From assembly GCF_003334385.1 (NCBI RefSeq), contig NZ_QOWN01000097.1: a stretch of DNA of 3,000 nt; one strand, given 5' to 3'. How positions within the stretch are numbered: the stretch's first letter is position 1; the number at the start of each line of letters is the position of its first letter. A program made the translations under genes and the position numbers. The stretch is from Escherichia coli. Its GTDB lineage: Bacteria; Pseudomonadota; Gammaproteobacteria; Enterobacterales; Enterobacteriaceae. This document shows, piece after piece, positions 1-3,000 of this stretch. The notes under the pieces were generated by a model. That model was not told the DNA's origin, did no database searches, and saw nothing but the letters and a program-made list of their open reading frames with translations.

Positions 1-3000
1 ACGCTGGCGCGGCTGTGGGGGGCGCTGCCGCCGGATATCCGGTTAAGCCCGCATCTTTACCTGGCGACCAACAGCGCACAGGGGCCGTGGTGGATACTGG
101 GGTGGTCTGAGCGGGTGCCGGGTGCTGAGGACGTACTGCCAGCGCCGCTGCCGCCGTACCGGGTGCTTACCGGGATGGCGGACCGCTTCGGGCGGACGCT
201 GACGTACCGGCGTGAGGCCGCCGGTGACCTGGCCGGGGAAATCACCGGCGTGACGGACGGTGCCGGGCGGGAGTTCCGTCTGGTGCTGACCACGCAGGCG
301 CAGCGTGCGGAAGAGGCCCGCACCTCTTCGCTATCTTCTTCTGACAGTTCCCGCCCTCTCTCAGCCTCAGCGTTCCCCGACACACTGCCCGGTACCGAAT
401 ACGGCCCCGACAGGGGTATCCGCCTTTCGGCGGTGTGGCTGATGCACGACCCGGCATACCCGGAGAGCCTGCCCGCTGCGCCACTGGTGCGGTACACGTA
501 TACGGAAGCCGGTGAACTGCTGGCGGTATATGACCGCAGCAATACGCAGGTGCGCGCTTTCACGTATGACGCGCAGCACCCGGGCCGGATGGTGGCGCAC
601 CGTTACGCGGGAAGGCCGGAGATGCGCTACCGCTACGACGATACGGGGCGGGTGGTGGAGCAACTGAACCCGGCAGGGTTAAGCTACCGCTATCTTTATG
701 AGCAGGACCGCATCACCGTCACCGACAGCCTGAACCGGCGTGAGGTGCTGCATACAGAAGGCGGGGCCGGGCTGAAACGGGTGGTGAAAAAAGAACTGGC
801 GGACGGCAGCGTCACGCGCAGCGGGTATGACGCGGCAGGAAGGCTCACGGCGCAGACGGACGCGGCGGGACGGAGGACAGAGTACGGTCTGAATGTGGTG
901 TCCGGCGATATCACGGACATCACCACACCGGACGGGCGGGAGACGAAATTTTACTATAACGACGGGAACCAGCTGACGGCGGTGGTGTACCCGGACGGGC
1001 TGGAGAGCCGCCGGGAATATGATGAACCGGGCAGGCTGGTATCGGAGACATCGCGCAGCGGGGAGACAGTACGCTACCGCTACGATGACGCGCACAGTGA
1101 GTTACCGGCGACGACAACGGATGCGACGGGCAGCACCCGGCAGATGACGTGGAGCCGCTACGGGCAGTTGCTGGCGTTCACTGACTGCTCGGGCTACCAG
1201 ACCCGCTATGAATACGACCGCTTCGGCCAGATGACGGCGGTCCACCGCGAGGAAGGCATCAGCCTTTACCGCCGCTATGACAACCGTGGCCGGTTAACCT
1301 CGGTGAAAGACGCACAGGGCCGTGAAACGCGGTATGAATACAACGCCGCAGGCGACCTGACTGCCGTTATCACCCCGGACGGCAACCGGAGCGAGACACA
1401 GTACGATGCGTGGGGAAAGGCGGTCAGCACCACGCAGGGCGGGCTGACGCGCAGTATGGAGTACGATGCTGCCGGACGTGTCATCAGCCTGACCAACGAG
1501 AACGGCAGCCACAGCGTCTTCAGTTACGATGCGCTGGACCGGCTGGTACAGCAGGGCGGCTTTGACGGGCGGACGCAACGTTATCATTATGACCTGACCG
1601 GAAAACTCACACAGAGTGAGGATGAGGGACTTGTCATCCTCTGGTACTACGATGAATCGGACCGTATCACTCACCGCACGGTGAACGGCGAACCGGCAGA
1701 GCAGTGGCAGTATGATGGCCACGGCTGGCTGACAGACATCAGCCACCTGAGCGAAGGCCACCGTGTTGCCGTCCACTATGGCTATGACGATAAAGGCCGC
1801 CTGACCGGCGAATGCCAGACGGTGGAGAACCCGGAGACGGGGGAACTGCTGTGGCAGCATGAGACGAAACACGCATACAACGAGCAGGGGCTGGCAAACC
1901 GCGTCACGCCGGACAGCCTGCCGCCGGTGGAGTGGCTGACGTATGGCAGCGGTTACCTGGCGGGAATGAAGCTGGGCGGGACGCCGCTGGTCGAGTATAC
2001 GCGGGACAGGCTGCACCGTGAGACGGTGCGCAGCTTCGGCAGCATGGCAGGCAGTAATGCCGCATACGAACTGACCAGCACATACACCCCCGCAGGCCAG
2101 TTACAGAGCCAGCACCTGAACAGCCTGGTATATGACCGTGACTACGGGTGGAGTGACAACGGCGACCTGGTGCGCATCAGCGGCCCGCGACAGACGCGGG
2201 AATACGGCTACAGCGCCACGGGCAGGCTGGAGAGTGTGCGCACCCTCGCACCAGACCTGGACATCCGCATCCCGTATGCCACGGACCCGGCGGGCAACCG
2301 GCTGCCGGACCCGGAGCTGCACCCGGACAGTACACTCACAGTGTGGCCGGATAACCGCATCGCGGAGGATGCGCACTATGTCTACCGCCACGATGAATAC
2401 GGCAGGCTGACGGAGAAGACGGACCGCATCCCGGCGGGTGTGATACGGACGGACGACGAGCGGACCCACCACTACCACTACGACAGCCAGCACCGCCTGG
2501 TGTTCTACACGCGGATACAGCATGGCGAGCCACTGGTCGAGAGCCGCTACCTCTACGACCCGCTGGGACGGCGAATGGCAAAACGGGTCTGGCGGCGGGA
2601 GCGTGACCTGACGGGGTGGATGTCGCTGTCGCGTAAACCGGAGGTGACGTGGTATGGCTGGGACGGAGACAGGCTGACGACGGTGCAGACTGACACCACA
2701 CGTATCCAGACGGTATACGAGCCGGGAAGCTTCACGCCGCTCATCCGGGTCGAGACAGAGAACGGCGAGCGGGAAAAAGCGCAGCGGCGCAGCCTGGCAG
2801 AGACGCTCCAGCAGGAAGGGAGTGAGAACGGCCACGGCGTGGTGTTCCCGGCTGAACTGGTGCGGCTGCTGGACAGGCTGGAGGAAGAAATCCGGGCAGA
2901 CCGCGTGAGCAGTGAAAGCCGGGCGTGGCTTGCGCAGTGCGGGCTGACGGTGGAGCAACTGGCCAGACAGGTGGAGCCGGAATACACACCGGCGCGAAAA
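1..3000 (+). CDS. Rhs family protein (RHS/YD-repeat polymorphic toxin core), internal fragment; both the start and the stop lie outside the window
   Basis: Frame +1 is uninterrupted by stop codons for all 1000 codons (my manual translation, line by line). The translation carries many copies of the Rhs/YD motif (Y-x-Y-D-x-x-G-R-L/V), e.g. [13 protein letters not shown] (nt 625-663), [12 protein letters not shown] (1207-1242), [13 protein letters not shown] (1267-1305), [10 protein letters not shown] (1582-1611), [12 protein letters not shown] (1777-1812), [14 protein letters not shown] (2377-2418), [12 protein letters not shown] (2548-2583). The window starts [20 protein letters not shown] and ends ...[15 protein letters not shown], with [26 protein letters not shown] at 2737-2814. 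GC content is high with GC-rich third positions, as known for Rhs cores. Paralog (rhsA/B/C/D-like) cannot be determined from the core alone, so the gene symbol is left empty. Confidence 0.95.
490..2694 (+). repeat. YD-repeat (RHS repeat) array at the protein level within the Rhs CDS; about 25-28 degenerate units of roughly 20-25 residues, not a nucleotide tandem repeat
   Basis: Recurring Y-x-Y-D / YD-x-x-G-R-L motifs in frame +1, at approximately aa 164-178, 189, 209-221, 229-238, 276-286, 318-326, 340-346, 359-362, 403-414, 423-435, 445-453, 468-473, 488-496, 509-516, 528-537, 549-556, 571-577, 593-604, 709-726, 735-745, 793-806, 825-836, 850-861 and 885-898. Unit boundaries are approximate and read by eye. 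Confidence 0.75.

Follow-up and report, generated by a model that had tools for sequence, protein, structure and literature searches.

A pyrimidine- and serine-rich tract of Escherichia coli rhsD as the probable flexible tail of an expanded, clade-specific hairpin of the Rhs shell

What is a short C/T-rich, serine-coding stretch doing inside an otherwise G-rich gene of Escherichia coli? The stretch in question is found at positions 322 to 372 (plus strand) of 3,000 nucleotides of E. coli DNA (assembly GCF_003334385.1, contig NZ_QOWN01000097.1), a piece that we call here, at its full length, the window. The window is internal to the coding sequence of rhsD. It is 100% identical to rhsD of E. 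coli SCU-104, and frame 1 of the plus strand is the only frame without a stop across positions 1 to 3000. This frame is open at both ends and encodes RhsD residues 154 to 1153, with the Pfam matches and the cocoon fold described below, and the tract therefore corresponds to RhsD residues 261 to 277. The host gene is a carrier of polymorphic toxins of the Rhs/YD-repeat type that is already well known, and rhsD itself, the Rhs subfamilies (rhsABCF, rhsDE, and rhsGH), and the cocoon architecture have been well described (PMC2935791, PMC10684867, PMC8765631). In our view, one hairpin of the RhsD shell carries a clade-specific expansion, and the tract is probably its flexible and unconstrained tail, which drifts in sequence and length while the reading frame is kept.

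The tract reads ACCTCTTCGCTATCTTCTTCTGACAGTTCCCGCCCTCTCTCAGCCTCAGCG and encodes 17 residues, nucleotides and peptide being exactly those given in an earlier note on this DNA, made from the letters alone. That note had described a C/T-rich, low-complexity segment standing out from G-rich surroundings, and the composition bears it out. Pyrimidines make up 74.5% of the tract versus a mean of 43.4% over the window (sliding segments of 51 nt, standard deviation 7.5%), and the 15 top-ranked segments by pyrimidine content (n = 2950) all begin between positions 316 and 331. The G content drops to 13.7%, versus 35.1% in the window. In 2000 codon shuffles of the window, the pyrimidine content never rose above 72.5%, short of the value of the tract. 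As for the peptide, 9 of its 17 residues are Ser (plus one Thr), which is the maximum of the window. The binomial tail for this count is 2.7e-7, or about 2.7e-4 when corrected for the 984 sliding windows, and only 0.02% of the protein shuffles attained it. In summary, no other stretch of the window is as rich in pyrimidines or in serine, to an extent far above that expected by chance. The same peptide written in the codon usage of rhsD would be only 46% pyrimidine, so that the excess goes further than the effect of the amino acids. It is the choice of codons that is skewed: TCN and AGY serine codons are found at 8:1 in the tract versus 10:45 elsewhere (Fisher p = 7.5e-5), and codons with C in the second position (NCN) amount to 71% versus 22% elsewhere.

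The location of the tract within the protein is marked by its flanks. In an N-terminal alignment of 37 homologues (35 to 78% identity), the tract is bordered by two conserved blocks, a hairpin with the pattern DRFGR...(I/V)TDGAGRxYxLxY on one side and, on the other, a strand D.G.RL..V.L followed by LVRYxYxxxGDL. A second alignment of 48 sequences (A1, the numbering of which, like that of the model built on it, is that of RhsD minus 47) has only four invariant columns, D239, R243, R294, and L295 (D192, R196, R247, and L248 in A1), and these are precisely the anchors at both sides of the tract. R243 belongs to the motif GAGR and R294 to GIRL, and neither arginine varies in any of the 37 homologues either. 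The first pair of anchors is in a YD-repeat-like shell hairpin (window 190 to 294, plus strand, RhsD 217 to 251) of predicted strands, the last of which is EFRLVLTT (271 to 294), and which aligns with residues 146 to 182 of chain B of Tse5. The second pair is in a shell strand (window 418 to 447, plus strand, RhsD 293 to 302; 246 to 255 in the model) that aligns with the same chain from residue 189 onwards. Tse5 of Pseudomonas aeruginosa (PA2684, PDB 8CP6, PMC10684867) is the closest solved structure and the best sequence match to RhsD among these (E 1e-121), and it has the same architecture, i.e., a PAAR-like N-terminus, a DUF6531 plug from P48, and a cocoon of YD repeats. The hairpin equivalent to the one that carries the tract is recognizable in Tse5 as SAGRSYALVYQQA...DDGLRLFGVIL. 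However, the anchors of Tse5 are 19 residues apart (SAGR-SYALVYQQA-6 residues-DDGLRL) versus 50 in RhsD, without any helix or Ser-rich tail in between, and across the 37 homologues the spacing from R243 to R294 goes from 13 to 55 residues with a median of 26. The tract belongs, therefore, to an expansion that adds some 25 to 30 residues to the tip of a hairpin in the shell.

This location differs from the one that had been supposed. The earlier note took the segment to link an N-terminal domain to the YD shell, and this cannot be maintained. The Tse5 plug (DUF6531) covers residues 48 to 124 with the barrel after it (PMC10684867), and RhsD aligns to it from P48 (PVNPLLGAKVLPGE in RhsD and PVNPMLGSKLLPEE in Tse5, with PVNPxLG in both). 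The Pfam match to DUF6531 (PF20148), which identifies the plug domain of RhsD, spans residues 46 to 123 (E 5.5e-18). With the plug ending at about residue 123, the tract is about 135 residues beyond it, and there are predicted shell hairpins at both sides, the preceding one aligned to barrel residues of Tse5. The wording "pre-repeat N-terminal region" is correct as far as sequence goes, since the segment falls within the "clade-specific N-terminal domain" of Jackson et al. (2009), but by structure the tract is inside the shell. Pfam detects nine RHS_repeat matches with E of 0.001 or lower, the confident ones starting around residue 320, and a weak one at RhsD 209 to 243 (E 1.5). These repeats, together with the structural model compared with solved cocoons, identify the YD (RHS) repeats as forming a beta-cocoon. 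As a separate observation on the plug boundary, the motif NPVNPLLG at the N-terminus of RhsD matches the K47|P48 autocleavage region of Tse5, with Asn replacing Lys at position 47.

An AlphaFold2 model of RhsD 48 to 1247 (1200 residues) was built on alignment A1. It has a mean predicted local distance difference test score (pLDDT) of 89.4 and a predicted template modeling (TM) score of 0.81. The best structural match is Tse5 (8cp6_B, TM scores of 0.81 and 0.89), and eight different solved Rhs cocoon entries are matched with query-normalized TM scores (TMq) of 0.63 to 0.81. Around the tract, the predicted order is a strand at 244 to 251, a helix at 252 to 265, coil at 266 to 292, and a strand at 293 to 302. 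Further shell strands are predicted upstream (206 to 213, 219 to 224, and 234 to 238, before that at 244 to 251) and downstream (316 to 320, after that at 293 to 302). The helix (window 295 to 336, plus strand; 205 to 218 in the model) comes with pLDDT values of 87 and 76 in the first two ten-residue blocks over 248 to 297, and its last five residues overlap the tract. In the coil (window 337 to 417, plus strand), DSSP assigned no regular structure from 219 to 245 of the model. The next three blocks score 55, 74, and 91, the last one at the shell strand after the loop, and the value of 55, a mean for RhsD 268 to 277 (window 343 to 372), is the lowest of all 120 ten-residue blocks. The flexibility that had been proposed for the whole peptide is thus predicted for residues 268 to 277 and not for its first five residues, TSSLS, which form the predicted end of the helix. 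Flexible loops of the shell have been seen before. In the cryo-electron microscopy structure of Pseudomonas protegens RhsA (PDB 7Q97; PMC8765631) such loops were left unmodelled, with gaps at 871 to 891 and 1039 to 1051. They are the same kind of feature as the RhsD loop but are located elsewhere in the shell.

Comparison among Rhs copies indicates how variable this segment is. In 120 E. coli and Shigella relatives among the matches listed, the flanks are conserved and the segment between them falls into discrete length classes of -5, 0, +3, and +5 residues relative to the window, as the earlier note had anticipated when it pointed to length variation between paralogues. The rhsD of the window has an 18-residue segment (class 0); the RhsA/B/C-type loop (RQQAISGGTEPSA) and a further type (QQQAVAAGAKRPD) are 5 residues shorter, a variant of rhsD (RKQRTASLSSPDTPRPLSASA) is 3 residues longer, and the RhsE-like loop (RKQRATSLSSPAGPRSVSSSQV) is 5 residues longer. 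The E. coli proteins of RhsA/RhsB/RhsC type (rhsABCF, PMC2935791) have the same flanks, helix, and insertion site as RhsD and about 78% identity over the N-terminal 450 residues. Their tail, 5 residues shorter overall, reads QQAISGGTEPSA and is encoded by G-rich DNA without detectable similarity to the RhsD tract (the forward alignment is no better than shuffles). RhsE-like, VgrG-linked genes of E. coli and Shigella (P0085, P0099, and P0001) carry instead a homologous Ser/Pro-rich tail at the same site, pyrimidine-rich like that of RhsD and alignable with it at the DNA level. These tails are 3 to 5 residues longer than that of RhsD (an extra RKQ and extra residues near the end), and roughly one in two residues of the tract is different, in most cases by an exchange among S, P, A, and T. 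Part of the difference is a 9-bp in-frame indel between window bases 318 and 319 (plus strand), where sister rhsD alleles and RhsE-like genes insert CGTAAACAG (Arg-Lys-Gln) that is deleted in the window allele (DNA alignment of L001, L003, and L004). The first part of the helix, TTQAQRAE, is kept across all E. coli Rhs types and in a Salmonella homologue; this Salmonella enterica protein has KQAAASRAKFLS in place of the serine tail. In a protein of Serratia silvae, just 26 residues separate the anchors. The expansion is thus partly kept and partly lost among the nearest relatives outside Escherichia. Pairwise identity over the tract is 12 to 41% versus 65 to 78% for the proteins overall, and in four pairwise comparisons the tract ranked between 1st and 14th lowest in conservation among 624 windows of 17 residues (first 640 residues). 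Nine Ser in 17 residues, the pLDDT of 55, this low identity, and the four length classes in E. coli characterize the tract as an intrinsically disordered low-complexity loop. Neither a conserved length and sequence nor an ordered place in the model was found for the segment, and the idea of a flexible stretch of varying length stands unrefuted. Separately, two singleton proteins on short contigs (P0010 and P0018) change from RhsD-like to RhsE-like at RhsD 250 to 283, i.e., at the loop; they could be assembly chimeras, rhs genes being repeated, or real recombinants with the crossover in the conserved flanks.

Variation between strains, in turn, is of another sort. The earlier note had proposed to check the tract for length polymorphism among strains, and none was seen within the rhsD allele class in 3441 E. 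coli records matching window 290 to 405. Of these, 2435 are at least 99% identical, 546 fall between 95 and 99%, and 456 between 80 and 90%; among the three examples listed for the lowest range, two (H47 and H48) span 124 to 125 nt versus 116 and are longer allele types. Tandem Repeats Finder detected no tandem repeat in the window, which has only direct repeats of 8 to 12 nt. The lack of tandem repeats and the near-invariance within the allele mean that the tract is no hot spot of slippage, and the length classes are old alleles or paralogue types. New changes in length are, however, tolerated in the same loop. One of the direct repeats is the 8-nt CCCCGACA (375 to 382 and 405 to 412, plus strand), and it bounds a 30-bp segment, window 375 to 404, that is tandemly duplicated in the rhsD of strain PF9285 (L006, NZ_CP038791.1), adding 10 residues to the loop in a coding sequence that is annotated as intact. 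A contingency locus or simple-sequence repeat was rejected on these grounds: there is no tandem repeat, 2435 of the 3441 records are nearly identical, and the sole duplication, in one strain, adjoins the tract.

A simple mechanism may account for the tract. In a minimal Rhs connection such as that of Tse5, a short turn joins the two shell strands. In Escherichia and Salmonella Rhs proteins, about 25 to 30 extra residues are accommodated there as a short helix (QAQRAEEAR...) and then an unstructured tail, rich in Ser, Pro, Ala, and Thr in the RhsD and RhsE-like lineages. The tail, in the first turn of the beta-cocoon, would have no catalytic or sequence-specific role and would only need to bridge the gap and leave the shell undisturbed; being so relieved, it would be free to drift among NCN codons (Ser TCN, Pro CCN, Ala GCN, and Thr ACN) and to tolerate in-frame insertions, deletions, and duplications. 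In rhsD, where the folded parts call for G-rich codons (Gly, Arg, Asp, and Glu), such a drift would give the DNA of the tail its pyrimidine-rich look. The substitutions seen among the Ser-rich forms are indeed mainly S/P/A/T exchanges, which are first-position changes within NCN codons, and they explain the TCN serines and the pyrimidine bias without a foreign origin. The tract looks like an ordinary tolerated insertion rather than a functional element. Some points weigh against this. The neutrality of the loop, like its surface exposure, is something that we only infer, and the model is based on just 48 sequences. Within the rhsD allele class, the tract hardly varies over the 116 nt compared, which could be due to recent common ancestry or to constraint. 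RhsD and RhsE-like types have both stayed rich in Ser through a sequence change of about 50%, leaving room for selection on composition.

If the tolerated loop is the correct explanation, what stands out by its composition in a well-studied gene comes down to a variable piece of the Rhs shell and matters little. A literature search found no description of this particular loop, which is nevertheless an ordinary feature of a known protein. The loop can conveniently serve to type Rhs subfamilies and alleles and is a plausible permissive site for the insertion of tags in Rhs cocoons, and its NCN-codon pattern illustrates how an unconstrained loop can resemble foreign DNA in a G-rich repeat gene.

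The alternative that survives best, although we consider it unlikely, is that the expanded hairpin is a functional, subfamily-specific element, either a docking site for a cognate VgrG, adaptor, or chaperone or a place where the shell is deliberately weak or cleavable, in aid of toxin release. The discrete classes of length and sequence that track Rhs subfamilies, with no continuous variation, would fit such a role, as would the stability within the rhsD allele and the composition shared by RhsD and RhsE-like forms; the +5 RhsE-like gene is, besides, directly downstream of a VgrG gene and rhsD is not. However, beyond composition there is no sequence conservation, many homologues lack the insertion, including the functional Tse5, and the 10-residue duplication beside the tract is tolerated. 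Published studies (PMC10684867, PMC8765631) also locate both functions away from the shell wall, the binding of VgrG at the N-terminal PAAR-like part and the release of the toxin at the plug and protease ends. Slightly less likely still is a related version, in which helix and serine tail would make up a functional, subfamily-specific module of enterobacterial Rhs shells, a handle for the cognate VgrG or adaptor or a built-in point of opening or clipping, the allele classes then being groups of functional compatibility. Phosphorylation or O-glycosylation of the serines, which the earlier note had also contemplated, seems very improbable: composition in a predicted flexible region (nine Ser and one Thr) is what speaks for it, but no motif was seen, no gene for a modifying enzyme is annotated in the 11-kb locus (neighbors ybbA, ybbP, and ybbC), the RhsA/B/C-type paralogues carry a Gly/Thr/Glu sequence with just two Ser instead, and the serines are swapped freely with Pro and Ala between alleles.

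The unconstrained tail would be an explanation at the protein level, and a role of the tract in the nucleic acid itself (a terminator or attenuator, a structured RNA, a slippage repeat, or the scar of an inversion or template switch) is just as improbable as modification and has been largely refuted. What suggested it was the strand composition, opposite to that of the rest of the gene, and an inverted repeat where the tract begins, with perfect 7-bp arms, GAAGAGG (310 to 316) and CCTCTTC (323 to 329), and a 6-nt spacer. A consensus scan found here its one terminator-like hairpin, at 310 to 329 and followed by a T-rich run, when 0.1 were expected by chance. However, the RNA of 300 to 350 folds no better than shuffled sequences (z -0.83), its minimum-energy structure differs from the terminator hairpin, and the 9-bp insertion of the sister alleles destroys the stem, and thus an intragenic terminator was rejected. 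There is no Rfam match at gathering thresholds, no tandem repeat, and no length change within the allele. A small inversion or template switch, an idea derived from the reversed strand composition and the inverted repeat, was rejected as well, the local alignments of the reverse-complemented tract to the flanks and to RhsA-type DNA being no better than dinucleotide shuffles (p of 0.2, 0.07, and 0.6). Short open reading frames overlap the tract on both strands, as expected in DNA with 65% G+C, and alternative reading frames have no support.

Regarding the host gene, about 3864 E. coli records match at least 80% of the window, and the median number of Rhs-like places per E. coli genome is 6. In locus L001, rhsD extends from 3542 to 7822 (1426 residues), with ybbP on one side and ybbC, annotated as a YbbC/YhhH-family gene, on the other; ybbA is also in the locus, and no vgrG adjoining rhsD was found there. 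The N-terminus, upstream of the window (3542 to 3685 of L001), has only a weak PAAR_motif match (E 0.27), PAAR and VgrG being the couplings through which a type VI secretion system would deliver the protein. The translation of L001 also contains, beyond the window, the aspartyl autoprotease motif DPxGx18DPxG at the C-terminus of RhsD, before the variable toxin tip. Two proteins of 701 to 790 residues (P0017 and P0019) are annotated as VgrG/TssI (Phage_base_V and Gp5_trimer_C) and continue into a DUF6531 region 94 to 97% identical to RhsD; either VgrG-Rhs fusions or genes that are truncated or misassembled could explain them. Two other regions were noticed in the shell. One is a second connection of variable length at window 448 to 486 (RhsD 303 to 315), after the next strand, where homologues have from 0 to more than 25 extra residues. 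The other is a helical segment at about window 2764 to 2961, with predicted helices at RhsD 1076 to 1141 and ten-residue pLDDT blocks of 70 to 90. Little corresponds to it in the solved relatives: RhsD 1074 to 1139 is opposite about 21 residues of Tse5, and RhsD 1073 to 1151 is opposite about 4 residues of P. protegens RhsA; the segment (RhsD 1075 to 1140) resembles a larger lineage-specific insertion located just before the C-terminal plug.

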